From Pristiophorus japonicus (taxonomy: Eukaryota): a stretch of DNA of 64,000 nucleotides. This document shows positions 1-28,337 of the stretch, piece after piece. The notes under the pieces are model-generated. The model worked only from the letters and a program-made list of their open reading frames with translations, was not told the DNA's origin and did not search any database. How positions within the stretch are numbered: the stretch's first letter is position 1; every line of letters starts with the position of its first letter. The translations under genes and the position numbers were made by a program. Location of the stretch: NCBI RefSeq assembly GCF_044704955.1, contig NC_091980.1:150970001-151034000 (forward strand). The letters run 5' to 3'.

Positions 1-4
1 CAAC

Positions 5-17
5 TGGCGATGAGAAT
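5..17 (+). promoter_or_regulatory. Primer-binding site, tRNA-Ser(GCU)-type
   Basis: TGGCGATGAGAAT matches TGGCGACGAGGAT (complement of the tRNA-Ser(GCU) 3' end) at 11/13; it directly precedes gag. Confidence 0.75.
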
Positions 18-1404
18 ATGGACTTTCACGCGATTATGGCTACCTTTGGCACACTAAAAGATTTTGCAGAGGGTGATGATTGGGATGCTTTCACAGAAAG
101 GCTCGAGCAATATTTCATGGCCACCAACCTGGCAGGGGAGACGGACACATTGGCAGAGAAGCGCAAGGCTATACTGTTGACCAGTTGTGGGCCCATGGTC
201 TACCACCTCATCAGGGACTTGCTGACACGCACGAAGGCCAAGACATATGATGAGCTGACTGAACTAATTCATGACCAACTAAAACCAAAAGAGAGCATCC
301 TCACGGCCAGGCACAGATTCTACACTCACCGCAGACCTGAGGGCCAGGAGATTGCAAAATATGCCGCCAACCTCAGGAGACTTGCGGCACCGTGTGATTT
401 CGGCATGCACCTCAACGAAGCATTGCAAGACATCTTCATTATGGGAATTGGCCACAAGGGCCTCCTTCACAAGCTATTATCTGCCGACACCACAATCAAC
501 CTGCAGAAGGCCATCAGCCTCAGTCAGGCATTTAGGACCTCGATCTGCAGCACCAAGCAAATTATTCATCCTGTGGACTCAAACCCGACAAGTACTGTAC
601 ACAGAATGGTGCCTTTCACAGGCAAGACCTTAGAACGTGGCTCTGCCTAGTTCAGAGAGCACAGACCTCAGGGTTCCAGAACTCAGAGTCCGCCGAGAGG
701 TGCAAATCGAGTAGCACCATGCTGGCATTACGGAGTAAACCATAGGGCTCACCAGTATCGGTTTGCTGAGTACGTATGCAAAGCCTGTAACACGAAGGGC
801 CACCTCCAGCCTATGTGTAAAAGAAATATGACTCACCGCAGAGGTGTCGGTAGATGACTTTGAATCCAGCGGGGAGTATGATGATTTGGCCAGAGAGGCA
901 GCTCAGCCCCAAGAAGAAGTGTATGGAGTGTATACCTGCACCACCGATTGTCCTCCAGTGAAGATGGAAGTCGAGATAAACGGCGTTCCAGTCTTCATGG
1001 AAGTGGACACGGGAGCGAGCCAGTCAGTGATGAGGCAGGATGCCTTTGAGAGGCTATGGAACGAAAAATGACCCGAGCTGGTTCCAATACAGGAAAAGTT
1101 GCGCACCTACACCAAGGAACTGATCCCAGTCCTTGGTCGTGCGGATGTAAGTGTAATCCATAATGGCGTGGTGCACAAGTTACCTCTGTGGATTTTTGCA
1201 GGTGATGGTCCAACACTATTCGAAAGATGGTGGAAGGGGAAGATCCAGTGGAACTGGGAAGACCTCTTCACTCCAGCAATCGATATCCCCCGTGCTCAGA
1301 GGCAAAGCAAAACCTCACCTTCGCTTAGGTCAGGCACCAGAGAACAGATCAGCGCAGCACCTGAGGCACAGACCGTCCATCACGACTGCGTGGCAATGAT
1401 CTGA
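18..1404 (+). pseudogene. Gypsy gag-protease pseudogene (element A)
   Basis: Gag N-terminus MATFGTLKDFAEGDDWDAFTERLEQYF; zinc knuckle CKACNTKGHLQPMC (~777-818); protease MEVDTGASQS and GDGPTLF; several stops and frameshifts. Confidence 0.9.
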
Positions 1405-2655
1405 CCAGAACGACCTAAAAGTACCTTTCCTGCTCCAGTGGCAGGACTCCTGCGGAGGAAGATCGAATTCACAGGCCCTCTTCCAGCTTTTGTGGCAGAA
1501 TCGCGGGAGAGAAGGATCAAGGCAGTCAACCTCGAGGACCGAGGCAAGATGGCATCCCTGCTGCAGCGAGAGGCAGCGTGGTGGAAAAAAAAGATGGCCG
1601 CGGCCATATCACGAGGTGCAACGCTGAGGGACCAACATGTGGTCTCTAACAAAGGATTTGATTGGGGTAAAGCCAGCAGGGATCTCTTAAAGGAGACCTG
1701 CAACCAACTGAACTTAAAGAGACATTGTATGCATGGCAATCAATGTAACGAACCAATTAAGAATGTGAACAAAATGTTGTTGCGAGATGTCGGGAATAGA
1801 GTGTCCCCAAAAGTTGCAAGTGAGCGAATTCGGGGGGGGGGGGGTGGGGGAGGTAAAGGCGCTGATCCTGATGCCCTGCCCCAGGTGTCACCACAAGTTA
1901 TAGGCCAGCGACCTCAGGAGGGTGAAGGCACTGATCCTGATACCCTGCCCCAGGTCTATCCCACGTTGCAGGCACCCAATGGCACTGGAAATGAAAATGG
2001 TGCCAATACTCACAATGGGCCGCCGTTGCCCATCACCCGGGTGGAGACGGCGCAGCCCCCAGACCCAGTCACTACCTCGGCCATGTCTGGGAGTGAAAGG
2101 TCAGAACCAACAAGTTCCCCAAACAGGACCGGGAACAGCCAGGTTCCCAACACCGTTAGAGAGCAGGCAGAAGAATCTGCAACCATCAAAGGAGGACAGG
2201 GAGGCCACACACATCTGTGGCTCTGCCCAGCACTAGGCAACAGCAAAGGCCCTGAGTCCTGGCAAGGTGAGCGAACCAAGCCCACCTCACTAGCAGGGGG
2301 CGCAGTGCCGCTATCAGACGACTAGGACCCCGTCCATTTGCTCTGGAACCTGAGTCCTCGCATACCTGTACTGCTACCTCAGTACTTACCATGACTGAAC
2401 CATGAATGCAATCTACCCAATCCTGGTGCACGACCGCAAAACGTAGCAAATGTAAGTCACTGAACCAAGGTTTCATGATACAAACTGTAACTTCCTTTCT
2501 TAGTACTTGCACTGTGTCTGATCCTGTATGTTAATGTAATGGACCTGCTGCACGATCTTGCTGTGGGGGGGGCAATGGATGTACAGGCAAATCTCGAATA
2601 TCCGGGTCCCTCGGGGATTGGGCTATTCCGGGTGAACGACTTTTCCGTTCGGGTG

Positions 2656-2892
2656 TGTGGTGTATGTAGCACACAAATCACTGACTCCACACGGTCTGGT
2701 GTAAGTCTAACTGCTGTGACCTTCGTCCTTTATTGTTCAGCTCCAGAGTGCCTCCCAGGTGTGGTGGTCAGCCTTATATAGTCCTTATTACAGGTACTAC
2801 CAGGGTTTCCCACCGCAGCGCCCTCTGTGGTGTGGCATAGTACTTACATTACATTTAAGGTACTGGGACGATACACACATCATTACATAACA
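2656..2892 (-). repeat. 3' LTR of element B
   Basis: Direct repeat of 7926-8162; TATATAA and AATAAA on the minus strand; adjacent to the PPT. Confidence 0.95.
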
Positions 2893-3639
2893 TCACCTTC
2901 CCCCCCCCCACCAACCTGGACGCAGGACAGCGATACACACATCATTACATAACATCACACTTGTCCAACGGAAGGCAGGTGGGCATAGACAGTGCGTTAG
3001 TATGGTACATATTATCTGGTACATTAACTGGTTATTGACTGGTAGCGGATCCTTGATTTCCTTGTTAGCCGTTATCATTAATTGTACTTCATCCATCATT
3101 TTACACAAATACAGTGGCCATTCAGCATAAAAAAGTAATTCTTATTATAAATTCACTATCTCACATTAACATTGCTCATTTTAGACTCGCTCTGCCGAAC
3201 AGAAGTCCTTTGTGGGGACCACCTCTTTGTAAGGCCCTTTTAAGACTCCCGGGTGCATTTCCTTTTTAAGGCGCCATCTTTGATGCAGGAGGATTCCATG
3301 AGGCTTCTCCTTGGGCGCCGCCATCTTTGATGCTCTGCAGCTCCGACACGATGCCGCCGCCATCTTCTTCTCCGCCGCTCCGGATGCCCTCCGCCGTCGC
3401 AGCCTCTGCTCCCCTCCGCTGCCACCTGACTTGCCGCCTCCCTCGCGGCTGCCATGGCCGCCTCCCCCGCGGCTGCCGTGGCCGCCCGACGCTACCAGCT
3501 CCTCGGCGGGGCCTGCCCAACGGCCTCTTCCTCTGCGGGGCCCTTCCGAACCGCCGGCCCCTGGATCCCTCAGCACCCCGCCCACAGCGCCCCGCCGGCT
3601 CACCCCCCCCCCCACAACTAGGCCCCTCTGTGCAGGGCT

Positions 3640-6592
3640 GCTTGCCTGTGGGGGTTGAGTCTGCAGGGTCTCTGTGTGAGGTCCGGGCCTGGGACTTGCC
3701 TGTGGGGGCTGGGGCTGCAGGGTCTCTGTGTGAGGTCTGGGCCTGGGGCTTGCCTGTGGGGGCTGGGGCTGCAGGATCTCTGTGTGAGATCCGGGCCTGG
3801 GACTTGCCTGTGGGGGCTGAGGTTGCAGGGTCTCTGTGTGAGGTCCGGGCCTGGGGCTTGCCTGTGGGGGCTGAGGCTGCAGGATCTCTGTGTAAGGTCT
3901 GGGCCTGGGGCTTGCCTGTGGGGGCTGGGGCTGCAGGGTCTCTGTGTGAGGTCCGGGCCTGGGGCTTGCCTGTGGGGGCTGAGGCTGCAGGATCTCTGTG
4001 TGAGGTCTGGGCCTGGGACTTGCCTGTGGGGGCTGCGGCTGCAGGATCTCTGTGTGAGATCCGGGCCTGGGACTTGCCTGTGGGGGCTGAGGTTGCAGGG
4101 TCTCTGTGTGAGGTCCGGGCCTGGGACTTGCCTGTGGGGGCTGAGGCTGCAGGGTCTCTGTGTGAGGTCTGGGCCTGGGGCTTGCCTGTGGGGGCTGGGG
4201 CTGCAGGATCTCTGTGTGAGATCCGGGCCTGGGACTTGCCTGTGGGGGCTGAGGTTGCAGGGTCTCTGTGTGAGGTCCGGGCCTGGGACTTGCCTGTGGG
4301 GGCTGGGGCTGCAGGGTCTCTGTGTGAGATCTGGGCCTGGGGCTTGCCTGTGGGGGCTGGGGCTGCAGGGTCTCTGTGTGAGGTCCGGGCCTGGGGCTTG
4401 CCTGTGGGGGCTGAGGCTGCAGGGTCTCTGTGTGAGATCCGGGCCTGGGGCTTGCCTGTGGGGGCTGAGGCTGCAGGGTCTCTGTGTGAGGTCTGGGCCT
4501 GGGGCTTGCCTGTGGGGGCTGAGTCTGCAGGGTCTCTGTGTGAGGTCCGGGCCTGGGGCTTGCCTGTGGGGGCTGGGGCTGCAGGATCTCTGTGTGAGGT
4601 CCGGGCCTGGGACTTGCCTGTGGGGGCTGAGTCTGCAGGGTCTCTGTGTGAGGTCCGGGCCTGGGACTTGCCTGTGGGGGCTGAGGTTGCAGGGTCTCTG
4701 TGTGAGGTCTGGGCCTGGGACTTGCCTGTGGGGGCTGAGGCTGCAGGGTCTCTGTGTGAGGTCCAGGCCTGGGACTTGCCTGTGGGGGCTGAGGCTGCAG
4801 GGTCTCTGTGTGAGGTCTGGGCCTGGGGCTTGCCTGTGGGGGCTGGGGCTGCAGGGTCTCTGTGTGAGGTCCGGGCCTGGGGCTTGCCTGTGGGGGCTGA
4901 GGCTGCAGGGTCTCTGTGTGAGATCCGGGCCTGGGGCTTGCCTGTGGGGGCTGAGGCTGCAGGGTCTCTGTGTGAGGTCTGGGCCTGGGGCTTGCCTGTG
5001 GGGGCTGAGGCTGCAGGGTCTCTGTGTGAGGTCCGGGCCTGGGACTTGCCTGTGGGGGCTGAGGCTGCAGGATCTCTGTGTGAGATCCGGGCCTGGGACT
5101 TGCCTGTGGGGGCTGAGGCTGCAGGGTCTCTGTGTGAGGTCCGGGCCTGGGACTTGCCTGTGGGGGATGAGGCTGCAGGGTCTCTGTGTGAGGTCCGGGC
5201 CTGGGGCTTGCCTGTGGGTGGATTGAGGCTGCAGGATCTCTGTGTGAGGTCCGGGCCTGGGGCTTGCCTGTGGGGGCTGAGGCTGCAGGATCTCTGTGTA
5301 AGGTCTGGGCCTGGGGCTTGCCTGTGGGGGCTGGGGCTGCAGGGTCTCTGTGTGAGGTCCGGGCCTGGGGCTTGCCTGTGGGGGCTGAGGCTGCAGGGTC
5401 TCTGTGTGAGATCCGGGCCTGGGGCTTGCCTGTGGGGGCTGAGGCTGCAGGGTCTCTGTGTGAGGTCTGGGCCTGGGGCTTGCCTGTGGGGGCTGAGGCT
5501 GCAGGGTCTCTGTGTGAGGTCCGGGCCTGGGACTTGCCTGTGGGGGCTGAGGCAGCAGGATCTCTGTGTGAGATCCGGGCCTGGGACTTGCCTGTGGGGG
5601 CTGAGGCTGCAGGGTCTCTGTGTGAGGTCCGGGCCTGGGACTTGCCTGTGGGGGATGAGGCTGCAGGGTCTCTGTGTGAGGTCCGGGCCTGGGGCTTGCC
5701 TGTGGGTGGATTGAGGCTGCAGGATCTCTATGTGAGGTCCGGGCCTGGGGCTTGCCTGTGGGGGCTGAGGCTGCAGGATCTCTGTGTGAGGTCTGGGCTT
5801 GGGACTTGCCTGTGGGGGCTGAGGCTGCAGGGTCTCTGTGTGAGGTCCGGGCCTGGGGCTTGCCTGTGGGGGATGAGGCTGCAGGGTCTCTGTGTGAGGT
5901 CTGGGCCTGGGGCTTGCCTGTGGGGGCTGAGGCTGCAGGGTCTCTGTGTGAGGTCCGGGCCTGGGACTTGCCTGTGGGGGCTGGGGCTGCAGGGTCTCTC
6001 TGTGAGGTCTGGGCCTGGGGCTTGCCTGTGGGGGCTGAGGCTGCAGGATCTCTGTGTGAGGTCCGGGCCTGGGGCTTGCCTGTGGGGGCTGAGGCTGCAG
6101 GATCTCTGTGTGAGGTCCGGGCCTGGGACTTGCCTGTGGGGGATTGAGGCTGCAGGGTCTCTGTGTGAGGTCTGGGCCTGGGGCTTGCCTGTGGGGGCTG
6201 AGGCTGCAGGGTCTCTGTGTGAGATCCGGGCCTGGGGCTTGCCTGTGGGGGCTGAGGCTGCAGGATCTCTGTGTGAGGTCTGGGCCTGGGGCTTGCCTGT
6301 GGGGGATAAGGCTGCAGGATCTCTGTGTGAGGTCCGGGCCTGGGGCTTGCCTGTGGGGGCTGAGGCTGTAGCATCTCTGTGTGAGGTCTGGGCCTGTGAC
6401 TTGCCTGTGGGTGGATTGAGGCTGCAGGATCTCTGTGTGAGGTCCGGGCCTGGGACTTGCCTGTGGGTGGATTGAGGCTGCAGGATCTCTGTGTGAGGTC
6501 CGGGCCTGGGACTTGCCTGTGGGGGCTGGGGCTGCAGGGTCTCTGTGTGAGGTCCGGGCCTGGGACTTGCCTGTGGGGGGATTGAGGCGGCA
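3640..6592. repeat. 54-bp minisatellite, ~54 copies, inside element B
   Basis: Unit CTTGCCTGTGGGGGCTGAGGCTGCAGGGTCTCTGTGTGAGGTCCGGGCCTGGGG; 18-aa periodicity in the ORF track; occasional 55-bp variants (GGGTGGATTGAGG). Confidence 0.97.
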
Positions 6593-6689
6593 GTTCCAGC
6601 TCGGTCGGCGCTGCTCTCTGGGGACCCGGGGCACGGCAGCACCCCGGGGAGCAGCAGCCTGTGGAGTGTATCTGGCCGTGAGCTCCCAC

Positions 6690-7890
6690 GGACTGTCCCC
6701 ATCCACCTCCGGCCGAGGAGCGTCGGCCCATCGCCTGCAACGACCCACAAAGGTGAAGCGTGCGTCTCGTCCCCATGGGATACCTGCACCATCGCTCTGC
6801 CAAGAACAGGTATCAGTTCCCTGGTGTAGGTACGCAGCTTCGCCATGACCGGGACCAGCTTGGGTCGTGCAGCTGGGTTAATCCACAGTTTATCAAAAGT
6901 TCTCCGACTCATCAACTACGGACCCGAGCTCGTGTCCACTTCCATACTCACTGGGACTCCGTTGATTTTTACTTCCCTTATCACTGGGGGCGAATCGTCG
7001 GTGCACGTATACAGTCCAAGCACCTCATCTTCTTCTACCTGCTGCTCGCTGAACAGTGGATCATCCCCCATCTCCTCAGCCACATGGTGAGTCCGATTTC
7101 TTTTACACATACGCTGAGGGTGGCCTTTAACGTGGCAGGTATTGCACGTGTACTCCGCAAACCTGCACCAGTGAGCCCCATGACTTCCTCCACAGCGCCA
7201 GCATGGTGCTGCTTGATTGGCCCCCCTCGGCGGACTCTAAGTTCCAGGATCCCGAGGTCCGTGCTCTCTGCCCCGGGCAGAGCCACGTTCTGCAGTTTTG
7301 TCCGTGCTGGGCGCTATCCTGTGGACAGTGCCTGCCGGGTTCGAGACTGTGTGGATTATTTGCTTGGTGCTGCAAGTCGAGGTCATATATGCCCGGCTGA
7401 TGGTGATGGCCTTTATCAGAGTGACTGTGGGTTCCGTGGCCAGCAGCTTGTGAAGGAGGCCCTCGTGGCCAATCCCTATAACGAAAACGTCCCGTAAAGC
7501 CTCGTCGAGGTGTGCCCCGAAATCACACGGCGCCGCGAGTCTCCTGAGGTCCGCAGCATATTTGGTGACATCCTGGCCCTCAGGTCTGCAGTGATGGTAA
7601 AATTTGTATCTGGCCGTGAGGATGCTCTCCTTCGGTTTTAACTAGTCACGAATGAGTTCAGTCAGCTCCTCGTATGACTTGTCCCTGGCGCTCCCAGGTG
7701 CCAGCAAATCCCTGACGAGACAGTAAACCTCATCTCCACAACTGGAGAGCAATATCGCCTTACGCTTCTCTCTCATTGAGTATGTGTCCTCCGTCAGGTC
7801 GTTTGCTGTGAAGTAGTACTCGAGCCTTTCCGTAAAGGCCTCCCAATCATTGCCCACGGTAAAATCCTTTAGCGAGCCCAGAGTCGCCAT
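6690..7890 (-). pseudogene. Gypsy gag-protease pseudogene (element B)
   Basis: MATLGSLKDFTVGNDWEAFTERLEYYF; knuckle remnant; MEVDTSS and GDGPTLLGRRW; stop at ~7642 and several frameshifts. Confidence 0.9.
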
Positions 7891-7925
7891 GGTTGCGTGG
7901 AGTTCGTCCACTTCCTCGTTGCCAA

Positions 7926-8162
7926 TGTGGTGTATGTAGCACACAAATCACTGACTCCACACGGTCTGGTGTAAGTCTAACTGCTGTGACCTTCGTCCTT
8001 TATTGTTCAGCTCCAGAGTGCCTCCCAGGTGTGGTGGTCAGCCTTATATAGTCCTTGTTACAGGTACTACCAGGGTTTCCCACTGCAGCGCCCTCTGTGG
8101 TGTGGCATAGTACTTACATTACATTTAAGGTACTGGAACGATACACACATCATTACATAACA
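7926..8162 (-). repeat. 5' LTR of element B
   Basis: Direct repeat of 2656-2892; followed in minus sense by the PBS and gag. Confidence 0.95.
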
Positions 8163-8375
8163 GGGTGAGTCTACATTTTAAAGTTAAAACCTAATGAATA
8201 AATACAATTGTTCGGGCGAGTTTACATTTATAAGTTAAAACTTTAATGAATCAATACAATCAGCGACAAAAGATGGACATTACCAGCATGCATGTACAGG
8301 TTCTGTGCCTGGAACCCGGTGCCGGCTCTGCCCTCCATTCCCAACGTCAGCGGCGGCCGCGAGATAGCGGCTGCA

Positions 8376-8411
<36 letters not shown>

Positions 8412-8810
8412 AGCAGCGCAAGGGCAGAGGAGGGTGATTGTTATGGTGAGTGAGAGAGAGAATGAGCGAGTGTGAGAGAGAGTGTGTGAGAGAGAGAATG
8501 AGCAAATACAAATGAGCACAGTGTTTGGAAGGCGATTTCCAAATTATTTTGAGCTGTCTTTTCACTTGTTAGCAACAGAATTTTAAATCCTGTTACAACG
8601 GTTTCCTGTTGGATCCGTGTATGGATAATCGAGAGTTGCCTGTATGTAGCCATGGACACACACATGGATCGCACCCATAACCCACTGGAACCTCCACTGC
8701 TTCATCGAACCATCCTAATTGGTAACCACTACCCAACGTTGTGGCAAAAGGACTTGGGAGTTAACAGGAAGCGAGCCAAGCCAAAGCACAGCCAAGGTGC
8801 AAGAGCTATT

Positions 8811-10490
8811 GGTCAAGCGTGGAATCAGCAAGGATTTGGAGTACATCAGCCTCAGTCTGCAGCTGCCTGGGTCGGTGGATTTGGGCAGGGTACAGCTGTT
8901 ATACCTAACCAAGCTGGCTTTAGGATGACAGGTTACCAGACGCAATGAGCAGGGACTCATTCTGTTTACCTACAAATAAGAGGAGCCCATATTTTTCTAA
9001 AGACAACATCAAAATGTTCACTGACACCATGAACAAAATATAGACTATTTATTTTAAAGCTGAATATTTAAAAAAGTGCAATCACAGTTGAGCTCATGGT
9101 GGAAGATGTGAAATGTTTCCCAGTTCTGCTCTCTTTTTTTTGTTCTGGGATGGGGAGGGGGTGAACATATAATCTGTTAATTTGTTTTTGAAGAGCAAAG
9201 TAATCGAGAATTATGAATTTATTTTGAAAATGAAGTGCTATTGTGTCTGAATTTAAAAATAAATGCAGTGTTAGTGGGAAAATGTCAACCAGACTTTTGA
9301 CAATCTTTTTTTTTAGTTGAGCATTCCACGATATTAATTTCATAGATATTGTTGTAAAGGGATCTTTAAAGCCTTGTATCATAAAGCCAGGCTAAATGTT
9401 CAATAAACATGAGACAACTGAATTTCACATTGCTATGGACCAACTGGCTGCTGTTTTATCAGAAAAGTTCTAGTTCATGGCCATCCTGAAATGCCAGTGC
9501 ACTGGCACAGATTGAGATGCATCAAATTTAACACTGTACATCAACTTTAAATTGTTTCTTTGCTTCACCATCCTATGCATTGAACAAGAAGCCCGATGAA
9601 GGCAACAGGTTTCTATTAAAAGTGAGTTGCACTACACTCTAAAATCAGGAAACTATTGCTGGAATCCTTTGCAATGTTTTGGTTATATTGGAGGTGTGCT
9701 CTACATATATGCATACACCTGGACAAAGGGGATTAGGGTGAAAGGTTGCAAATGTAAATCTCTATAGATAACATTTAATACACTAATATGATTTTTAAGG
9801 CATGCTTTAGTGTAAAGGTATCACAATTACTACTTTGTGTCAGTTAGAAGCTGTGGAAAGAGTAAAAAAAGCTATTAAATTGTACAATACTGAAGTAGCA
9901 GGTTGCCCAGAATGTGCAATGTATGGCTGTGTTTCACAAGAGTATGTTAATATATCTTTCCTACTGCAGTTACATGATATGTAAAATTATACAAAGTAAA
10001 TTTCAAACTGAAGCCTTAAATTTTATTTCTTCAAACAGCTTTGGGTGTAGTCATTAATAGTTTCAGTGCTCTTTTTTTTTGGCTTTTCTATCTATTCTGT
10101 TGCTGTGCTTAGTTAATATCATGCAGGTTTATTGAACCATATAAAATTAATGCAAGGTTGAATAGTTGCATAATTTCTTCAGGCCATCTATAAATGGAGT
10201 GTTTTTAAGTCTAAAATTAAAAATGTAAAATACAATCATGTCAGAACCAACTATTTAATTTTAACAGTAATATGTGCCATTTGTTAACTGAAGGTGCAGT
10301 GCAAAACTCTGTACCAGTTATTTGTCATTTTAAGGTATTTTTCAGTGGTTTGCATGTTACTGCAATTCACATTTGTAAAAAAAAGATTAATGCTAGCTCA
10401 TTTGAGAGTTGGCTGTGGAATGGGTGGATTATGAAGAAATGCTGAAAGCAAATTGACATTAATTGTGTCTAGATTATTTCTTTGTTCTGT
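8811..10490 (+). pseudogene. TIAL1: 5'-truncated TIAL1 (TIAR) retrocopy: last ~45 codons plus ~1.5 kb AT-rich putative 3'UTR
   Basis: GQAWNQQGFGVHQPQSAAAWVGGFGQGTAVIPNQAGFRMTGYQTQ* (8811-8948) matches the TIAL1 C-terminus as I recall it (WNQQGFGV..SAAWMGGFG..NQAGYGMASYQTQ*). Composition switches abruptly to AT-rich sequence after the stop. The 3' boundary is inferred from the adjoining CR1 tail. Confidence 0.85.
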
Positions 10491-10494
10491 AAAA

Positions 10495-10604
10495 GGGGTA
10501 CTAAGGGAATGATCAGCCATGATCTTATTGAATAATGGTGCTGACTCGAAGGGCCGAATGGCCTACTCCTGCACCTATTTTCTATGTTTCTATGTTTCTA
10601 TGTT
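10495..10604 (+). mobile_element. CR1 LINE 3' tail
   Basis: GATCAGCCATGATC..CTCGAAGGGCCGAATGGCCTACTCCTGCACCTATT followed by (TTCTATGT)n; same tail as the CR1 at 15013. Confidence 0.9.
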
Positions 10605-10675
10605 AAGTCTGGGGAGAGCTAAGCCAGAGCACATAGTGCAAAGGTAATCGGCACAAAGGAATTGGGGGAGAGTGA

Positions 10676-11033
10676 TGTTGTATATGCAGACTATCGATAT
10701 ACTCTCTGTGTAGCCCCTGTATAGTTACATAAGATGGAGACTTGTTACCTGATGTACTATCAATAAGGTTTACAATGTGTATATACGATGCTGGCACCAC
10801 TAGAGGGTGCAACTGGCGGAGACCGGGGTTTCCCGCTCCTGTGGCAGAGGCTGTCCACCAGAGCGCACTGCGGTGGGAGACCTGAGGGTCACCTGCATAG
10901 GTTTGCAGGACCCAGTATAAAAGGCTGCCCACCATGCTTGTGCCTCACTCTGGAGTTACGAATAAAGGACCAAGGTCACTACAGTTTGAGTACAACACAT
11001 TGCCTCATGGATAAGTGCATTACAGACACAACA
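10676..11033 (+). repeat. 3' LTR (358 bp), probably of element A
   Basis: TGTTGT..ACAACA termini; preceded by a PPT; TATAAAA at ~10916 and AATAAA at ~10961; cuts the pol frame of element C. Confidence 0.9.
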
Positions 11034-13361
11034 GTTACCAAAATAGTTGAGGAGTCCCAGGAACGAACGCAGCTCCATCACATTCTGTGGTCTGGGTGCA
11101 TTCTTGCTGGCCTCTGACTTTGAGTCCGTGGGTCTGATGCCATCTACCGCAATCTTTCTCCCCAAAATTTGACCTCTGGCACCAGGAAAACACATGTGGA
11201 GCATTTCAGCCTGAGTCCCACTTTGTCTAATCGACTTAGAACCTCTTCCAGGTTGTACAGGTGTTTGGTGGTGTCACGACCGGTGATCAGGATGTCGTCT
11301 TGAAACACAACGGTGCGGGGAACTGATTTCAGCAGACTCTCCATGTTCCTCTGGAAGATAGCAGCAGTCGAGCGAATCCCAAAAGGGCACCTGTGGTATA
11401 TAAACAGTCCTTTGTGCGTGTTGATGCACGTCAATCTTTTTGAAGATTCAGCCAGCTCCTGTGTCATGTAGGCGGAGGTTAGGTCCAACTTGGTGAATGA
11501 CTTTCCCCCTGCTAACGTTGCGAACAGGTCATCTGCCTTGGGTAGTGGGTACTGGTCCTGCAGTGAGACTCGGTTGATCATTACCTTGTAGTCTCTGCAG
11601 ATTCTGACCGTGCCATCGTTTTTCAACACCGGAACAATTGGACTGGCCCACTCGTTTGAACTCGACTGGTGATATGATTCCCTCTCGTTGAAGCCTGTCC
11701 AGTTCGATCTTGACTTTCTCCCTCATCACATATGGAACCTCTCGAGCCTTGTGATGAACAGGCCTTGCATCGGGGACTAGATGGATCTGCACCTTGGCAC
11801 CTGTGAAGTTGCCGATGCCTGGTTCAAATAGCGATGGAAACTTGCTCAGCACTTGGGCGCACGAGGCATCATCCACTGAAGATAGTGTTTTGATGTCGTT
11901 CCAGTTCCATCGAATCTTTCCCAGCCAGCTTCTGCCGAATAGCGTTGGACCATCGCCTGGTATAATCCACAGTGATAAATCATGCACAGCTCCATTGTAT
12001 GATACCTTAACTGTCGCACTGCCAATTACTGGTATGAGCTCTTTGGTGTAGGTGCACAGCTTTGTCTGAATCGGACTCAGTTTGGGTCTTTGTGCCTTGT
12101 TGCCCCACAGTTTCTTAAAAGCCTTCTGGCATATAATTGATTGACTCGCCCCAGTGCCAAATCCATTGATACCGGAATACCATTCAATTTGACTTTCAGC
12201 ATAATAGGAGGGCTCTTGGTGGTGAAGGTGTGTACCCCATACACTTCTTCCTCGGGTTGAGTTGCCCCTCTTGTTTGTTCTGCATGATCCATGCCGGATC
12301 GATCATCCTCTGCCGACTCTGCCACGTGGTGAGTCACAGCACTCTTGCACATTCGCTGGAGGTGCCCCATTGTTTCGCAGCCTTTGCACACGTAGTGCTT
12401 GAATCGACATTGATGGGCTCGATGATTACCCCAGCAGCGCCAACATGGTGCTAATGGATTTGCATTCACACCCGATGGCGGACTCTGCGTCATCCTAGGC
12501 CTTGCAGCTGCAGACGTGTAGGCCCTGCCATATGCAGTTCTGTCTGCTAGCGATGTTATTTTATGCACAGTACTTGCCGGTGAGCTCGGAAGATATCTGT
12601 CTGATATTATCGCTCATGGATATGAATGCCTGGGCTATCGTGATGGCTTTGCTCAGGTCTAGGGATTCGGTGGACAGCAGCTTGCGAAGAATGACCTCGT
12701 GGCCAATGCCAAGCACAAAAAAGTCCCTCAGCATTTTCCCCAAAAATTGTCCAGCAAATTTGCAAGTTCCGGCAAAGCGTCTCAGGTCGGTGACCTAACT
12801 CGCCACGTCCTGGCCCTCGGAGCGGCGGTGCGTGTAGAAGCGTTACCTGACCATTAAGACACTCTCCTTCAACTTGAGGTGTTCCCGAACCAGCGTACAC
12901 AACTGGCTTCTCCAGCAGATCTGAGTGCTAGCAGATTCTTGATGAGGCCATATATTGTGGACCCACACACGGTGAGGAGAATCACCCTGCGCTTGATCGC
13001 TGTGCCGTCCCCATCCAGCTCGTTGGCCACGAAGTACTGGTCGAGACGCTCAACGAAGGCTTCCCAATCATCACCCTCTCCAAATCTCTCTAAAATACCA
13101 ACGGCAGCCATGACCACGTGAAAGTTCATAATCTGTTACTCGTCGCTAATTGTTAAGTATGGAAGAACTCCACAAGACTGAGTACTGTGAGCTAAAACTG
13201 ATGTGACCTTAGTCTCTTTAATACAACTCCAGAGTGCCTAAGCAGCCTGGCAGACAACCTTTTATACTCCCTTGCATGAGGTGTGCAGGTGACCCTTGGG
13301 CCTCCAACAGTTGCGCTCTCTGGTGGCAAGTCTTATAGTTACAATGTTTACATACATAACA
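11034..13361 (-). mobile_element. LTR element C: 5'LTR-PBS-gag-PR-RT of an autonomous-type Mag-like Gypsy, decayed and interrupted at 11034
   Basis: LTR TGTTA..TAACA at 13151-13361; PBS TAGCGACGAG; gag EGDDWEAFVERLDQYF; two knuckles CWRCWGNH..C and [10 protein letters not shown]; RT motifs RICRDYK, KLDLTSAY, PFG, VFQDDIL; ends at ELRSFLGLLNYFGN. Confidence 0.93.
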
Positions 13362-14837: not shown

Positions 14838-15012
14838 GTGGGCTAGAATTTACACTTTGCTGGCTATTGCCCCAAAAATGAGCGATGTTCCAGCCTTAGC
14901 GGTGTGTCAGCCTTACTGGTCGCTGGAACATCGGCCATTTATTGGATCGAGATTTTCGGCTCAGTGATAGCCCAGCGAGGTGAAGTGGGCCCTGCGATAC
15001 ACCAGCGATGTG

Positions 15013-18000
15013 AAACATAGAAACATAGAAAATAGGTACAGGAGTAGGCCATTCGGCCCTTCGAGCCTGCACCACCATTCAAAATGATCATGGCTGATCA
15101 TGCACTTCAGTAGCCCATTCCTGCTTTCTCTCCATACCCCTTGATCCCTTTAGCCGTAAGGGCCACATCTAACTCCCTTTTGAATATATCTAACGAACTG
15201 TCCTGAACAACTTTCTGAGGTAGAGAATTCCACATGCTCACAACTCTCTGAGTGAAGAAGTTTCTCCTCATCTCGGTCTTAAATGGCTTACCCATTATCC
15301 TTAGACTGTGACCCCTGGTTCTGGACTTCCCCAACATTGGGAACATTCTTCCTGCATCTAACCTGTCCAGTCCCGTCAGAATTTTATATGTTTCTATGAG
15401 ATCCCCTCTCATTCTTCTAAATTCCAGTGAATACAAGCCTGGTCGACCCTTCCTTTCTTCCTATGTCAGTCCTGCCATCCCGGGAATCAGTCTGGTGAAC
15501 CTTCGCTGCACTCCCTCAATAGCAAGAATGTCCTTCCTCTGATTAGGAGACCAAAACTGATCACAATATTCCAGGTGTGGCCTCACCAAGGCCCTGTACA
15601 ACTGCAGTAAGACCTCCCTGCTCCTATACTCAAATCCCCTAGCTATGAAGGCCAACATGCCATTTGTTTCCTTCACCGCCTGCTGTACCTGCATGCCAAC
15701 TTTCAATGACTCATGTACCATGACACCCAGGTCTCGTTGCACCTCCCCTTTTAATAATCTTCACCATTCAGATAATAATCTGCCTTCCTGTTTTACCACC
15801 AAAGTGGATAACCTCACATTTATCTACATTATACCGCATCTGCCATGTATTTTCCCACTCACCTAACCTGTCCAAGTCACCCTGCAGCCTTTTAGCGTCC
15901 TCCTCACAGCTCACACCACCACCCAGTTTAGTGTCATCTGCAAACTTGGAGATATTACATTCAATTCCTTCGTCTAAATTATTAATGTATATTGTAAACA
16001 GCTGGGGTCCCAGCACTAAATCTAGTGGTACCCCACTAGTCACTGCCTGCTATTCTGAAAAGGACCCGTTTATTCATACTCTTTGCTTCCTATCTGCCAA
16101 CCAGTTCTCTATCTACGTCAGTACATTACCACCAATACAAAGTGCTTTAATTTTGCACACTAATTTCTTGAGTAGAACCTTGTCAAAAGCCTTTTGAAAG
16201 TCCAAATACACCACATCCACTGGCTCCCCTTTTCCACTCTACTAGAAAGTGGACTCCTGTGCTGAATTCTAAATTTCTCCCAGTCCTCAGTTTTGCTGCT
16301 TTTTTGGGCCAATTTATATGCCTCTTCCTTGGATTTAACACTATCCCTAATTTCCCTTGTTAGCCACAGTTGAGCCACCTTCCCTGTTTTATTTTTATGC
16401 CAGACAGGGATGAACAATTGTTGAAGTTCATGCATATGATTTTTAAATGTTTGCCATTGCCTATCCACCATCAACAATTTAAGTATCATTCACCAGTCTA
16501 TCCTAGCCAAATCACGTCTCATACCGTCGAAGTTACCGTTTTTAAGTTCAGGACCCTAGTCTCTAAATTAACTGTGTCACTCTCCATTTTAATGAATAAT
16601 TCTACCATATTATGGTCACTCTTCCCCAAGGGGCCTTGCACAACAAGATTGCTAATTAGTCCTTTCTCATTTCACATCACCCAGTCTAGGATGGCCAGCT
16701 CTCTAGTTGGTTCCTCGACATATTGGTCTAGAAAACCATCCTTTATACACTCCAGGAAATCCTCCTCCAACGTATTGCTACCAGTTTGGTTAGCCCAATC
16801 AATATGTAGATTAAAGTCACCCATGATAACTGCTGTACCTTTATTGCACACATCCCTAATTTCCTGTTTAATGCCAACTCCAACTTCACTACCACTGTTT
16901 GGTGGTCTGTACACAACTCCCACTAGCGTTTCCGGCCCTTTGGTATTCCGCAGCTCCACCCATACCGATTCCACATCATCCAAGCTAATGTCCTTCCTTA
17001 CTACTGCATTAATTTCCTCTTTAACCAGCAATGCTACCCCACCTCCTTTTCCTTTCAGTCTATCTTTCCTGAATGTTGAATACTCCTGGATGTTGAGTTC
17101 CCAGCCTTGGTCACCCTGGAGCCATGCCACCGTCACTGCAATTACATCATATCCATTAACAGCTATCTGTGCAGTTAATTCATTCACCTTATTACGAATG
17201 CTCCTCGCATTGAGACACAGAGCCTTCAGGCTTGTTTTTTTAACACACTTTGTCCTTTAGAATTATGCTGTAATGTGGCCCTTTTTGATTTTTGCCTTTG
17301 ATTTTTCTGCCCTCCACTTTTTCTTTTCTTCTTTCTATCTTTTGCTTCTGACCCCATTTTACTTCCCTCTGTCTCCCTGCATAGGTTCCCATCCCCCTGC
17401 CTTATTAGTTTCAACCCTCCCCAACAGCACTAGCAAACATTCCCCTAGGACATCGGTTCCGGGCCTGCCCAGGTGCAGACCGTCCGGTTTGTACTGGTCC
17501 CACCTCCCCCAGAACCGGTTCCAATGTCCCAGGAATATGAATCCCTCCCTCTTGCACCATTCCTCAAGCCACGTATTTATTGTGTTCCTAACACAGATGA
17601 GGCTGCATACAGGGAGGTTAAAGTAACAGTGAGCTCAGTCTTTAATAAGACACTCCAGAGTGAGGAACAGGCCTTAGGGGCCGGCTTATATACAGTGCTC
17701 CCAAGGAATGCTGGGATCCCTTGGGACTTCAGGGGATGAGCTCCCTGGTGGCAGAACATGGGAGTGCATGCTTTACAGATACACAACATAACTTCCCTCC
17801 CAAAGTTAAAGTGAAAACTATTTACAAGGTGAGGCGGTCGGGAGCCTTTCTTTCCCTGGTGGACCGCTTCGGTACAAATGTCTGTTCTGGTGTGTTGGCT
17901 GTGCCCTCGCTGGGTTGGCGTGTGTTGGCCCTGCAGGGATGCTAGGTGAGCCTGGCCTTGTTGGGCTGTTGGACGTGATGGGTTCGATTTGTAGGTTTTG

Positions 18001-21000
18001 TAGGTACTCGGCGGTGTCCCGACCCGTGACCAATTTGTCATCCTGAAGGACCACCATGTGTGGTACCGACTTGAGTAGGCTCTCCATGTTTCTCTGGAAG
18101 ATCGCTGCAGCCGACTCAATTCCAAACAGGCATCTGTTGTAGATGAACAGTCCCTTGTGCATGTTGATTGAGGTGAGGCCCTTTGAAGACTCCTGCGTCA
18201 TGTAGGCCGAAGTCAGGTCAAGCTTGGTGAATGTCTTGCCTCCTGCCAGCGTCGCAAATAGGTCGTCTGCCTTAGGTAGTGGGTATTGGTCCTATAGTGA
18301 GAAATGATTAATAGTTACTTTATAATCGCCGCAAATCCTGACCGTGCCATCACTTTTGAGTACTGGAACAATCGGGCTGGTCCACTCGCTGAATTCCACT
18401 GGGGAGATGATGCCCTCATGTTGCAACCTGTCCAGCTCGATTTCCACTCTCTCCCTCATCATGTGAGGTACCGCTCGCGCCTTGTGGTGAATGGGTATTG
18501 CCTCTGGGACCAAGTGGATCCGTACTTTCGCCCTGGAAAAGTTTACAATGCCTGGCTCAAAAAGGGAAGGAAATTTGTTAAGAACCTGGGTACATGAGGC
18601 TTCATCGACATGTGATAGCGCTCGGATGTCATCCCAGTTCCAGCAGATTTTGCCCAGCCAGCTCCTTCCAAGCAGTGTGCGGCCATCGCCTGGGACAATC
18701 CAGAGTGGCGGTTTGTGCACCGTGCCCTCGTAGGTGACCTTGACCATGGCACTGCCCAGGACAGTGATAAGCTCTTTGGTGTACGTTCTCAGTTTCGTGT
18801 GGATGGGGCTCAGGGCTGGTCTGAATACCTTGTTGCACCACAGTCTCTCAAACATCTTTTTACTCATGATGGATTGGCTAGCGCCAGTGTCCAGTTCCAT
18901 TGCTACGGGTAAGCCATTCAATTTTATATTTAGCATTATAGGTGGACATTTCGTCAAAAATGTGTGCACCTTGTGTAATGATGTTGTGTATCTGTAAAGC
19001 ATGCACTCCCATGTTCCGCCACCAGGGAGCTCATCCCCTGAAGTCCCAAGGGATCCCAGCATCCCTTGGGAGCACTGTATATAAACCGGCCCCTAAGGCC
19101 TGTTCCTCACTCTGGAGTGTCTTATTAAAGACTGAGGTCACTGTTACTTTAACTTCACTGTGTGCTGCCTCATCTGTGTTAGGAACACAATAACTGGATA
19201 CGAATCCAACGTAAAGATGCAGCAAACTGTGGGCATCCTGGAGAAGTTCTCGGAGGGCGAGGACTGGGAAGCCTATGTCGAACGGCTAGACCAGTACTTT
19301 GTAGCCAACGCGCTGGACGGAGAAGGAAGTACTGCAAAAGGACTCCTCACAACTGTGGGGCACCGACCTACAGCCTCATGAAAAATCTTCTGGCTCCGGT
19401 GAAACCCAGAGATAAGTCATATGAGGAGCAGTGTACACTGGTTCGGGAGCATCTTAACCCGACTGAGAGCATGCTGATGGCGAGGTATTGGTTCTCCACG
19501 TGCCAGCGATCTGAAGGTCAGGAAGTGGCGAGCTACGTCGCCGAGCTAAGGCGACTTGCAGGACAATGTGAGTTTAATGGCTACCTGGAGCAGATGCTCA
19601 GAGACTTTTTTGTACTGGGCATTGGCCACAAGACCATCCTATGAAAACTTTTGACTGTAGAGACACCGACCCTCAGTAAGGCCATTGCGATAGCACAGAC
19701 GTTTATGTCCACCAGTGATCACAGCAAACAAATCTCTCAGCACACAAGTGCTAGCAATGTTCATAAAGCAATGTTCAGAAATGTACAGGGCAGAACCCAC
19801 GGGTATGCAACTGCCAGCAGGCCTCAGGTGACCCAGATGACTCAAAGAGTTCCCAACAAAGGATGAATGCAAGGCAATTCACACCTTGTTGGCGTTGTGG
19901 AGGCTTCCATTCAGCCTATTCATGCCGCTTCAAAGGGTATGTTTGCAAGAGCTGTGGAATAATGGGGCACCTCCAACGAGCTTGCAAATGAACTACAAGC
20001 TCTGCAAAACCTGCTAACCACCACGTGGCAGAGGAAGATCAGTCCATGGTGGATCAAAGCAATTTCGAGCCTTAGAGAGAGGAGGCAGATGCTGAAGTAC
20101 ATGGGAGTGCATGCTTTGCAGATACACAACAGTATTCATCTTAACTATCCGGCTATTTCTACTCTAACTACCACGTGGTACTGGTGGCAATCCTGAGATT
20201 ACCATCTTTGAGGTCCTACTTTTTAATTTAACTCATATCTCCCTAGATTCAGCTTGTAGGACCTCATCCCGCATTTTACCTATATCGTTCGTACCTATAT
20301 GTACCACGACAACTGGCTGTTCACCCTCCCCCTCTAGAATGCCCTGCAGCCACTCCGAGGCATTTTTGACCCTTGCACAAGGGAGGCAACATACCATCCT
20401 GGAGTCTCGATTGCGGCCACAGAAACGCCTATCTATACCCCTTACAATAGAATCCTCGACCACTATAGCTCTCCCACTCTTTTTCCTGCCCTCCTATGCA
20501 GCAGAGCCACCCATGGTGCCATGAACTTGGCTGCTGCTGCCTTCCCCTGATTGGCCATCTCCCCCAATAGTACACAAGGTGGTATATCTGTTTTGGAGGG
20601 AGATGACCGCTTCCTTCCACTGCTCTTCCTGATGGTCACCCATTTCCTATCTGCCTGTGTAACCTTTAGTTGCGGTGTGACCAACTCACTAAACGTGCTA
20701 TTCACGACATCCTCAGCATCGCGGATGCTCAAGAGTGAATCCATGCGCAGCTCTAGTGCCACAATGCGGTCTGTCAGGAGCTGCAGCTGAATACACTTCC
20801 TGCACACATAGTTATCAGGGACACAGGAAGCATCCCTGATTTCCCACATAGCACTGGAGGAGCATGATATGGATCTGGGCTCTCCTGTCATGACTTAACC
20901 CATAAATTACTTAATTTGGCAACAATGCCAAGGTTTCTTACTGCTAAGAAAAAGAAAAAAGAAAAAAGATAAAGAAAAAGGAAACTACTCACCAAGCAAC

Positions 21001-21165
21001 CAGCCATTCACTTACCCTCTTGGCTGTGACGTCACACTTCGATCACTTTTTACTTCTTTCTTACTTTTGACCCTGCTGCAGCTACAGCTAGCTGCTCCTC
21101 ACTGACTGCCGCTGTTCCTTGCTGCCACTGGGCTATTTATAGGCCTTGCTGCTCCTCCCCAACTG
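15013..21165 (-). mobile_element. Near full-length CR1 LINE (ORF1 zinc finger/esterase, ORF2 EN-RT), decayed, internally deleted, interrupted by element D
   Basis: Tail (CATAGAAA)n at 15013; RT KFADDTK and RPHLEYC; EN GGGVALLVK, YRPPNS, MGDFNL; ORF1 esterase DSIVRGIDRRFC and VHIGTNDI; Cys-rich CRKCIQLQLL. Confidence 0.93.
17578..20131. mobile_element. LTR element D: Mag-like Gypsy with internal pol deletion and inverted LTR+gag segment
   Basis: TSD GTATT (17573-17577, 20132-20136). In order: LTR (minus) 17578-17788, PPT, pol C-terminus RSTRERKAPDRLTL, RT and PR (minus) to 18970, LTR (plus) 18982-19192, gag (plus) 19217-20100, 33-bp LTR end (minus) 20099-20131. Confidence 0.9.
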
Positions 21166-21167
21166 CA

Positions 21168-22360
21168 AAGTGGGCCCAGCAGTACCCCAGCGATGTGGTG
21201 GGCCCAGTGATACCCCAGTGATGTGAGCTGGGTCCTGTGAAACCCCAGTGATGTGAAGTGGGCCCAGCGATACCCCAGCGATGTGGTGGGCCCAGTGATA
21301 CTCCAGTGATGTGAGCTGGGTCCTGTGATACCCCAGTGATGTGAAGTGGGCCCAGCGATACCCCAGCGATGTGGTGGGCCCAGTGATACTCCAGTGATGT
21401 GGTGGGCCCAGTGATGTGGTGGGCCCAGTGATACCCCAGCGATGTGGTGGGCCCAGTGATACCCCAGTGATGTGGTGGGCCCAGCGATACCCCAGTGATG
21501 TGAAGTGGGCCCAGCGATACCCCAGTGATGTGAAGTGGGCCCAGCGATACCCCAGTGATGTGGTGGGCCCAGTGATACCCCAGCGATGTGGTGGGCCCAG
21601 TGATACCCCAGTGATGTGGTGGGCCCAGCGATACCCCAGTGATGTGAAGTGGGCCCAGCGATACCCCAGTGATGTGAAGTGGGCCCAGCGATACCCCAGT
21701 GATGTGAGGTGGGCCCAGCGATACCACAGTGATGTGAAGTGGGCCCAGCGATACCCCAGTGATGTGAGGTGGGCCCGGCGATACCCCAGTGATGTGAAGT
21801 GGGCCCAGCGATACCCCAGTGATGTGGTGGGCCCAGCGATACCACAGCGATGTGGTGGGCCCAGCGATACCCCAGTGATGTGGTGGGCCCAGCGATACCC
21901 CAGTGATGTGGTGGGCCCAGCGATACCCCAGCGATGTGGTGGGCCCAGCGATACCCCAGTGATGTGGTGGGCCCAGCGATACCCCAGTGATGTGGTGGGC
22001 CCAGCGATACCCCAGCGATGTGGTGGGCCCAGCGATACCCCAGTGATGTGGTGGGCCCAGCGATACCACAGTGATGTGGTGGGCCCAGCGATACCACAGT
22101 GATGTGGTGGGCCCAGTGATACCCAAGCAATGTGAAGTGGGCCCAGCGATACCCAAGCAATGTGAAGTGGGCCCAGTGATGTGAAGTGGGCCCAGTGATA
22201 CCCCAGCGATGTGAGCTGGGCCCAGTGATACCCCAGCGATGTGAGCTGGGCCCAGCGATACCCCAGCGATGTGAGCTGGGCCCAGCAATACCCCAGTGAT
22301 GTGGTGGGCCCAGCGATACCCCAGCGATGTGGTGGGCCCAGCGATACCCCAGCGATGTGA
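21168..22360. repeat. 28/30-bp minisatellite, ~40 copies
   Basis: Unit GTGGGCCCAGCGATACCCCAGTGATGTG(AA). Confidence 0.96.
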
Positions 22361-24094: not shown

Positions 24095-24315
24095 TGATTG
24101 GGTATTCATATGCTAATTGACTAATTGCAGAAACTCATCTTTCCAGTTTGGCTGGGTCTGGCCTTTTGGCTTGGGCCAATTGGAGAGAAGAAGAAATCTG
24201 CATGTCGACCAACCATTGGGTGGACCAGGAGGTCTGCCAAGGTGCCGGACTGGCACCACAAAAGATTGAAGGCTTCGGCCAAAACACAAGCCGAAAGGAG
24301 GAATCTGCAACCCGG

Positions 24316-25578
24316 ATGGCGGCCAACCGAGCGGCGAACCAGGGAGTCCGAAACACCATCCGAGTGACTGTGGAGAAAGTGGAAGGACAGACAACGATCA
24401 ACTGGGACCTCTTCATGAAGAAAATCCTGCTGGGAACCTGTGGCCTGAAAGTCGCGGATGTCTTCGCCTTGCAGGACGTCCCGAAGAGAGATTACTTTGA
24501 TGTAACCTTCAGAAATGTCACCCTATGCCTGAAGTTCCTGAAGGGATTGAAGGAGGCGAGTGAACCACTGCGGTCAATGCTGACTTGGGAACCACTGTTC
24601 ACCCTCCCGTCGCAGAGGAAACGTACTATCACAGTGCACACGTATAACCCCCACAACCCAGTCATTGATGTGCTGACATTCCTCGCCAGGTATGTCAATG
24701 GGGCAAGAAACAACATCGACCTGAAAGACCTCCACGGGATATGGACCAGCAAACGCCAGATCCAGGTCACCTTGAAAGTGGACGCCAGCGGAATCATCCT
24801 GCACCCCTCCTCCAGCTTCGCCATCGGAGGAAGTTGGAGCTACATGGTGTTCGCTGGTCAACCCAACGTGTGCCGCACCTGCGGGAAGGCGGGCCATGTG
24901 GCGGCAAGCTGCAAAACCCTCATCTGCCGCAACTGCAAGAACGAAGGCCACCAGACAAAGGACTGTAAGGAGACCAAGTGCTGCAACCTTTGTGGTCTGG
25001 CTGGGCACCTTTACAAGAACTGCCCCAAACGCAACTTCAGCTATGCACAGGTGGCAAAGAACATTGCACGAGAGGAGGAGGAAGCTGAGGAACACAATGC
25101 TCCAGAGGAGACCTACACCCTCCCACCGACCAACGCCCTGGGCAAAGAAGCAACTGCCCTCGTAGACTCCGAACAAGTCAGGGAGGAAGAGAAGCCTGCT
25201 ACAGTGAGCTGCGAGACACCAGCACCCAGCAGTGAAGCTCTCCCCCAGCACACCAAGTCCATGAACGAGGAGGCAGCAGATGATGGAGCGGGATGGGAGA
25301 CCATCAAGAAAAAAGCCTGCAAGCGTAAGGAGAAGAGGCAAGCAAGGGCTCCTGCTGAAACGAAAGGGAAGAGGCAGCTAATGTCCATGACAGATAGCAG
25401 CGGCAGCAGCTCGTCTGATGATGAAAGGCGAGACAAAGCCCCTCACTACCGCCACCAGAACAAGAGGCAAAACGCCAATTCACAGCCCCAGGTGACCGGG
25501 GGCAGTGAAACAACGAGTGCAGCCCCGCTCCCTCACCTATTCTGTGTATCGTATAGTGCCACATGTAATGTAATTTGA
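24316..25578 (+). CDS. Tx1/Keno-type ORF1 protein (ZCCHC3-like, three CCHC knuckles), ~420 aa
   Basis: Uninterrupted ORF; QGVRNTIRV..FDVTF RRM-like region; knuckles CRTCGKAGHVAASC, CRNCKNEGHQTKDC, CNLCGLAGHLYKNC. The start ATG is inferred, and the last codons run into the tail. Confidence 0.8.
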   Translation: MAANRAANQGVRNTIRVTVEKVEGQTTINWDLFMKKILLGTCGLKVADVFALQDVPKRDYFDVTFRNVTLCLKFLKGLKEASEPLRSMLTWEPLFTLPSQRKRTITVHTYNPHNPVIDVLTFLARYVNGARNNIDLKDLHGIWTSKRQIQVTLKVDASGIILHPSSSFAIGGSWSYMVFAGQPNVCRTCGKAGHVAASCKTLICRNCKNEGHQTKDCKETKCCNLCGLAGHLYKNCPKRNFSYAQVAKNIAREEEEAEEHNAPEETYTLPPTNALGKEATALVDSEQVREEEKPATVSCETPAPSSEALPQHTKSMNEEAADDGAGWETIKKKACKRKEKRQARAPAETKGKRQLMSMTDSSGSSSSDDERRDKAPHYRHQNKRQNANSQPQVTGGSETTSAAPLPHLFCVSYSATCNVI

Positions 25579-28097: not shown

Positions 28098-28335
28098 CAA
28101 CATAAGAATATGAGAACTAGGAGCAGGAGTTGGCCTTGTGGCCTCTCGAGCCTGCTCTGCCATTCAATCCGATCACAGCTGATCATTGACCTCAACTCCA
28201 CTTTTCCGCCTGATCTCCATATCCCTCGATTCCCCCAGAGTCCAAAAATCTATCTGTCTCCGCCTTGAATATACTCAACGACTGAGCCTCCACAGCCCTC
28301 CGGGGTAGAGAGTTCCAAATATTCACAACTTTCTG
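28098..28335 (-). mobile_element. CR1 3' end
   Basis: QKVVNIWNSLPRRAVEA..FKAETDRFL plus tail. Confidence 0.9.
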
Positions 28336-28337
28336 TC

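Follow-up and report, generated by a model that had tools for sequence, protein, structure and literature searches.

We found that the spliced end of a TIAL1 (TIAR) mRNA and a CR1 3′ tail lie together, as one block, inside a copy of an LTR element, and that a single CR1 target-primed insertion into an element copy already in place very probably put them there. The block occupies positions 8813-10602 (1,790 bp) of the 64-kb stretch of DNA that was analysed (the window), and consists of the TIAL1 coding end, its 3′UTR, 94 further bases and the CR1 tail. Both outer junctions are well resolved and the feature is real. A sequence-only reading had given its span as 8811..10604; we move the bounds inward, as the outer 2 nt on each side are microhomology. 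The block and the LTR elements around it are laid out as follows.

3-2655, + strand: 5′ internal part of LTR element A, with a primer-site-like start and decayed gag/protease-like DNA (reading of the sequence)
2656-8162, − strand: LTR element B, inserted in A and carrying a satellite within it (LTRs, flanking duplication)
8163-8812, + strand: non-coding internal stretch of element A that ends at the insertion (high-copy over 8520-8839 in X1/X3, joined to 10603)
8813-8845, + strand: remnant of the penultimate TIAL1 coding exon, 5′-truncated (protein match; X5 contig from 8816 on)
8846-8948, + strand: last TIAL1 exon, coding part with stop (parent-type DNA contigs, codons, protein alignment)
8949-10397, + strand: TIAL1 3′UTR (X5 RNA-like contigs, ~4.4% divergence)
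10398-10491, + strand: 94 AT-rich bases between UTR and CR1 tail (GC 0.34)
10492-10602, + strand: CR1 3′ tail, 111 bp (homology to CR1 copies, fold, octamers)
10603-10675, + strand: element A resumes, with pre-PPT DNA and polypurine tract (joints from 8812 to 10603; sequence)
10676-11033, + strand: 3′ LTR of element A, TG...CA (72-77% similarity with LTRs of other elements nearby)

We aligned public contigs to 8520-10900. X1 and X3 are DNA runs of one sample of organism A, mutually dependent and possibly from the window's own source sample. X5, also from organism A, is called RNA-like on the grounds of its size and a spliced contig of depth 545, the run not being on record as RNA. X9 is a DNA run of organism B. 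Summed contig depth was used as a rough guide to copy number.

Translation of 8811-8945 gives the last 45 TIAR residues, followed by the TIAL1 stop codon at 8946-8948 and AT-rich DNA (GC 0.30-0.35). A protein search with this stretch returned TIAR/TIAL1-type RRM proteins as 20 of 20 matches, of which 17 are named TIAR or TIA1-like 1 and 3 are unnamed RRM or hypothetical proteins. The top BLASTP match is a shark protein (80% identity, E 1.5e-12), and the fragment is 89-93% identical to four chondrichthyan TIAR proteins when a 6-residue gap is ignored, which places the host among the cartilaginous fishes. The translation and the protein matches confirm that TIAL1 C-terminal codons begin inside element A, as had been read from the sequence. 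The copy has an 18-nt in-frame deletion after 8882, the 18 letters being present in X1, X3 and X5 contigs, and D>H, G>R and A>T replacements at conserved residues. Its codons share a frame with an open stretch of element A (8553-8948, + strand; ATG at 8652, 98 codons to the TIAL1 stop); an in-frame join of this kind has a 1-in-3 probability by chance, and the reading frame is known from sequence alone.

The coding part had been said to cross an intron position, GFGV|D, and to be spliced, and the contigs agree. A 346-nt parent-type DNA contig, present in the same form in X1 and X3, carries the 18 missing letters; its alignment begins only at 8846, the 104 letters ahead of that position being left unaligned. 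The X5 contig of depth 545 crosses 8845/8846 from 8816 with nothing unaligned. It has 30 letters to the left of the junction, where the bridging rule requires 31, and its start would fit graph branching of spliced and unspliced forms at 8845. The exon junction splits the Asp codon, and chimaera isoform P0040 and chicken isoform P0010 both depart from the common sequence right after GFGVD. These contigs and isoform breakpoints, from which the intron letters themselves are not displayed, support the loss of the parent's last intron from the TIAL1 copy, which like a processed retrocopy is without an intron present in its parent. We considered a proximity-ligation chimera at a GATC site as the cause of the 8846 break and rejected it, because the same 346-nt form occurs in two runs and because the alignment starts at 8846, not 8845. 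At five positions in 8922-9001 the 346-nt contig also agrees with the window against X5; since parent and copy share 39 identical bases there, these mixed letters probably reflect graph simplification across a common stretch.

RNA-like X5 contigs cover 8816-9195, 9227-9870 and 9864-10397, and they differ from the window at 69 of 1,558 positions in 8816-10397 (4.4%, CI 3.5-5.6%). The roughly 1.5 kb of UTR-like DNA reported earlier is thus borne out as far as 10397, the last position to which homology to the parent RNA is shown. The final X5 contig of the parent RNA ends at 10397 with no letters left hanging. X5 does not cover 10398-10439, since the bin that takes in these positions has a depth of 114.0, equal to that of the final contig alone. 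This stop, seen in one study, is a weak hint that 10397 is the parent's main RNA end; it could also be a filter or assembly effect. The 94 bases that follow are probably parent DNA from downstream of that end. They have no second match anywhere in the 64-kb window by self-comparison, and one exact 22-nt pattern from them gave 0 matches in metagenome contigs. In the window, neither 10397 nor 10491 is preceded at a distance of 10-35 nt by a canonical poly(A) hexamer; one-mismatch hexamers do occur before these positions, as expected by chance in AT-rich DNA. Further upstream, the depth of the parent RNA-like contigs halves at 9864-9880 (521 to 240), beside an ATTAAA at 9874, which may mark a proximal poly(A) site of TIAL1.

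CR1 homology begins at 10492, as seen from the loose ends of contigs and from 89% identity to 15012-15119. The tail, put at about 110 bp in the sequence-only reading, measures 111 bp and ends in three TTTCTATG octamers (10579-10602) that are one letter off the amniote motif. These octamers and a terminal hairpin close the block, with no poly(A) tail, again as first read. The stem-loop has its inner stem at 10551-10564, and the fold of 10530-10604 reaches z −1.98, with 9 of 200 shuffles as good; the whole of 10490-10604 has z 0.12, and of the stretches folded only 10530-10604 beats its shuffles. A 3′ hairpin followed by an 8-nt microsatellite, as found in 10492-10602, is how CR1 3′ ends are described (PMC4316615, PMC5729268, both in excerpt). 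Four A's lie at the UTR/CR1 junction (10491-10494). An element of the kind that supplied the tail is present nearby in the window.

15015-21169, − strand: long decayed CR1 of the same octamer family as the tail (tail 89% identical over 108 bp)

This long CR1 is interrupted by an LTR element at 17577-19193. It retains endonuclease (PF03372, E 2.9e-8) and RT (PF00078, E 2.2e-7) matches, both past the cut-offs, and a weak esterase-like match (PF13472, E 0.0057) that falls below its cut-off, which together make up the endonuclease, RT and esterase ORF1 of a CR1-clade source, the esterase part weakly. Canonical vertebrate CR1s have an esterase ORF1 and chondrichthyan L2s are without ORF1, according to the excerpted text of PMC13343379. 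Judged from this domain content rather than from an RT tree, CR1 is the right label for both the tail and the long LINE. The ends of the long CR1 are nearly blunt, with 2-3 nt of tail/target microhomology; it sits within a tandem repeat of ~24-26 bp and has a big internal ORF2 deletion. The short LTR element inside it has two LTR-like ends that are inverted and 96% complementary. By octamer, two CR1 tail families can be told apart, TTTCTATG (10579-10602) and TTCTTATG (13880, 40140, 48348). Contigs of organism B mostly carry the TTCTTATG octamer, and the TTTCTATG family may be lineage-restricted.

We then asked what the insertion site looks like in copies of element A without the block. At least 9 joints skip the whole block, in 21 contigs of X1 (summed depth 1,702), 19 of X3 (1,304) and 2 of X5. 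The commonest among those listed links 8812 to 10603 through three letters, usually CAC, and the listed joints from 8810, 8811 and 8813 for which letters are given agree with it in net length. Uninterrupted copies of element A thus join 8520-8812 to 10603, and the 1,790-bp block replaces 3 bp. We looked for a target-site duplication at the block and found none. At the 5′ junction GG (8811-8812) is common to the target and a TIAL1 Gly codon, and at the 3′ junction TT (10603-10604) is common to the target and the next octamer. The empty-site joints indicate that both parts of the block were inserted in one event at one target, as in template-switch chimeras, and support the CR1 reverse transcription that the sequence-only reading had offered in its first option. 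Among the 32 DNA contigs listed of 138,215 pieces, none bridges the element/TIAL1, exon or UTR/CR1 junction, so that the linkage of the parts of the block rests on the window assembly. After contig filtering, X1 and X3 have gaps in cover at 9880-9959 and 10280-10359, and X9 is nearly without UTR cover and without cover on the element A flanks, the latter being what a lineage-restricted family would give.

Past the tail the pre-PPT DNA of the LTR element resumes, as had been claimed, with a polypurine tract and the TG...CA LTR. At the other end, 3-2655 matches gag-like DNA from LTR elements nearby at 72-79% similarity, and a Pfam search of two pieces of it found no domain; the 5′ LTR of element A lies before the window start. 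The LTRs of element B (2656-2892 and 7926-8162) show 3 mismatches over 237 positions and have GGGTG on either side, and this 5-bp duplication suggests that 3-2655 was continuous with the DNA from 8163 on. Element B is younger than the TIAL1 insertion, given how little its LTRs differ. A G-rich tandem repeat with a ~56 bp unit has expanded inside it (3620-6590), with the LTRs still 98.7% identical. Element A looks non-autonomous, as an RT match is absent from the stretches of it that were examined. Related LTR families are nested over 1-13352: B interrupts A, and A itself seems to have split the pol of a minus-strand element (11034-13352) that has an RT match (PF00078). Elsewhere in the window, a 485-codon open frame at 24121-25578 (+ strand) has CCHC zinc-knuckle-like motifs and may resemble a Tx1/L1-type ORF1. 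Satellite arrays at 28250-36900 and 51300-64000, with a 12-bp period, occupy about a third of the window, and G skew exceeds 0.9 in the latter.

A single CR1 target-primed event accounts for the end flush with the octamers, the nearly undisturbed target, the truncated 5′ end and the microhomologies. In this event the ORF2 protein would bind the hairpin, as in CR1/L2 biology, the nicked target would pair with the octamer over 2 nt and prime synthesis there, about 1.8 kb would be reverse transcribed, and the 5′ end would be joined by microhomology with a short target deletion. CR1/L2 insertions show short target alterations, mostly 3-5-bp duplications and also blunt joins and truncations, so that a 3-bp truncation is allowed but not modal (PMC4245944, in excerpt).

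How the TIAL1 RNA came to carry a CR1 tail is a closer matter. By a narrow preference that is one of judgement, we give about an even chance to a tail that was present in cis beforehand, a little beyond the main RNA end of the parent. A truncated CR1 tail in the same orientation would sit ~94 nt beyond that end, and a spliced TIAL1 transcript overrunning it would carry the tail and become a SINE-like substrate. Stringent LINEs can reportedly prime inside longer RNAs (Kajikawa and Okada, 2002). Stringent LINEs require host RNAs that bear their tail (PMC4476161), and this genome is rich in CR1 tails. The copy continues for 94 bases past 10397, and if that position is the main RNA end, its template overran it. 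Such an overrun would follow from a CR1 tail a little farther downstream in the parent, and fits less well with an RT that jumped onto abundant TIAL1 RNA; the extension is a weak hint from one study, as the contig stop may be a filter or assembly effect. A CR1 tail within the parental 3′UTR, raised in the sequence-only reading as a case that would refute it, is excluded for 8816-10397 only, and a tail just downstream is at least as likely. Against a tail in cis, the abundant parent RNA has none in 8816-10397, and several truncated copies would be expected, yet there are only two DNA haplotypes at 9040-9195. Nor does summed depth rise toward the 3′ end, at 13.7/16.3 for 10200-10279 and 7.0/6.2 for 10360-10439, under patchy cover. 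The absence of a bridging DNA contig among those listed weighs on this best explanation too.

The main competitor, a template switch or a joining of RNAs before reverse transcription, is the same single event with a parent that never bore a tail, and we regard it as a substantial if lesser possibility. In the switch version the CR1 RT would start on the RNA of a CR1 or a CR1-tailed SINE, copy 111 nt, and then plausibly move, at a short run of A's, onto a spliced TIAL1 transcript with a long UTR. All the single-event evidence applies here as well, and the copy being about single-copy and the four A's at 10491-10494 fit it. There is precedent in the 5′-truncated U6 sequences before short L2 tails in platypus (40 chimeras, PMC4476161) and in the heads of CR1-tailed SINEs in birds (PMC5729268, in excerpt). 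The tail has 4 private differences in ~84 columns (CI 1-12%) against two other copies in the window, which fits the 4.4% divergence from the parent. However, this matching age and the junction microhomology are equally expected with a tail in cis and do not discriminate, and the jump would have to land 94 nt past the point where the abundant RNA seems to end, itself a weak hint.

Two steps, an L1/Tx1-type poly(A) retrocopy followed by a CR1 insertion that removed the A-tail and the right target duplication, are very unlikely. The window has 7 other CR1 tails in 63.7 kb, a 4-A run is left at the junction, and Tx1/L1 content tracks retrocopy counts (bioRxiv 10.64898/2026.06.26.734816, in excerpt). 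However, neither side has a duplication and the net loss is only 3 bp, where L1-type duplications peak at 13-15 bp (PMC4245944, in excerpt). The second insertion would also need to be precise: at the window's tail density, the chance of a same-strand tail within 7 bp of a given junction is p ~4e-4.

Equally improbable is capture by the LTR element, in which the RT of element A left its own RNA for TIAL1 mRNA and then returned, the CR1 tail being either a later arrival or part of the mRNA. Such capture is documented across animals (PMC5131818, in excerpt), and the block does lie in an LTR element's internal region, in the same orientation and with 2-nt microhomologies. The version with a later CR1 tail, the second option of the sequence-only reading, is strongly disfavoured, as element A is continuous save 3 bp; the discontinuous element with a part-replaced internal region that marks LTR-mediated retrocopies is not found. 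All 15 of 15 fly cases replaced part of an internal ORF, with a median microsimilarity of 6 bp (PMC5131818, in excerpt). The 3′ border of the block coincides with the end of the octamers, the place at which CR1 begins priming, and nothing suggests that the block was amplified as part of an A-derived element. Least probable of all is a DNA-level duplication or assembly artefact without an RNA step, for which speak the three junctions without a bridging DNA contig among those listed and the one contig that joins intron-side parent-type to window-type letters at 8922-9001, readable as an intron-bearing duplicate, and against which stand window-specific contigs with 0 differences in both DNA runs (e.g. 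9040-9195, 9166-9410, 9627-9837) and a spliced junction that DNA assembly cannot invent.

After its insertion by CR1, the copy has decayed like a processed retrocopy, with 4.4% divergence, and 3 replacements and a 6-codon deletion in 45 codons. The two haplotypes at 9040-9195 have depths of 9.5/10.1 (window type) and 5.5/6.4 (parent type). The flanks in element A are thousands of times deeper than the TIAL1 block in X1/X3, which indicates that element A did not amplify its TIAL1 passenger. The TIAL1 copy is a dead pseudogene, about single-copy, and function is not evident. The private differences in the tail are compatible with the same age as the UTR divergence and too few to discriminate.

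The junctions of the TIAL1 block indicate that a spliced protein-coding mRNA with an attached CR1 tail can be inserted by the CR1 machinery, a candidate route for the many retrocopies described from shark genomes rich in CR1. That birds have few retrocopies is usually explained by CR1 accepting only RNAs that bear its own tail (PMC5470649, in excerpt). The rarity of retrocopies in CR1-dominated genomes, taken as known in the sequence-only reading, holds for birds, but for cartilaginous fishes 14,081 retrocopies are reported, 5.4% of annotated loci (bioRxiv 10.64898/2026.06.26.734816, in excerpt). CR1-group elements make up 22-34% of the genome in these fishes (PMC13343379, in excerpt), and retrocopy counts are tied to CR1/Tx1 content by correlation only in the excerpted part of the former source. 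This raises the question of whether the reported cartilaginous-fish retrocopies are made via attached CR1 tails. We suggest, tentatively and as something we think rather unlikely, that CR1 tails in or just past 3′UTRs routinely make host mRNAs SINE-like, and that a large share of these retrocopies is CR1-tailed, not poly(A)-tailed. If this is true, the choice of retrocopied genes would be set by the positions of CR1 tails and not only by expression, and the TIAL1 locus would be a clean example whose empty site can still be read.

Chimeras of host RNA and LINE tails are already established; the TIAL1 case adds a spliced protein-coding mRNA with a CR1 tail. In human, mRNA-L1 chimeras were reportedly described by Buzdin in 2003. 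We found no description of a spliced protein-coding retrocopy ending in a CR1 tail in the literature searched, most subscription papers being outside it. LTR-mediated retrocopies (PMC5131818, in excerpt) are alike in being partial mRNA copies in an LTR element, on the same strand and with junction microhomology. They differ in that 0 of 15 looked like an interrupted continuous element, whereas element A is interrupted, not part-replaced, and the 3′ end of the TIAL1 block is a LINE priming repeat. L1-type processed pseudogenes (PMC3747384, PMC5470649, both in excerpt) share the intron loss, 5′ truncation and neutral decay; the TIAL1 block, in contrast, is without their poly(A) tail and 13-15-bp target duplication, and has an octamer end and a 3-bp target loss. 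CR1-tailed SINEs (TguSINE1/PittSINE, PMC5729268; shark HE1/HER1, PMC3747384; both in excerpt) likewise are foreign RNA bodies mobilised by a CR1 hairpin-plus-octamer tail, and arise by similar switching according to the excerpt of the former. Unlike these SINEs, the TIAL1 block has no tRNA head, Pol III promoter or family of many copies; it is single-copy-like and dead, and its 5′ end is truncated coding DNA. The closest likeness in form is to the U6-L2 and U6-Mon1 chimeras, in which a 5′-truncated host RNA stands before a short stringent-LINE tail ending in a simple repeat and the target duplication is small or absent; 40 U6-L2/Mon-1 chimeras are described in platypus, several in lizard, and one gapped U6-CR1 in turkey (PMC4476161). 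Unlike the U6 chimeras, the TIAL1 block joins a spliced protein-coding mRNA of ~1.7 kb to the tail of a CR1 LINE in a cartilaginous fish, with the switch only a candidate.
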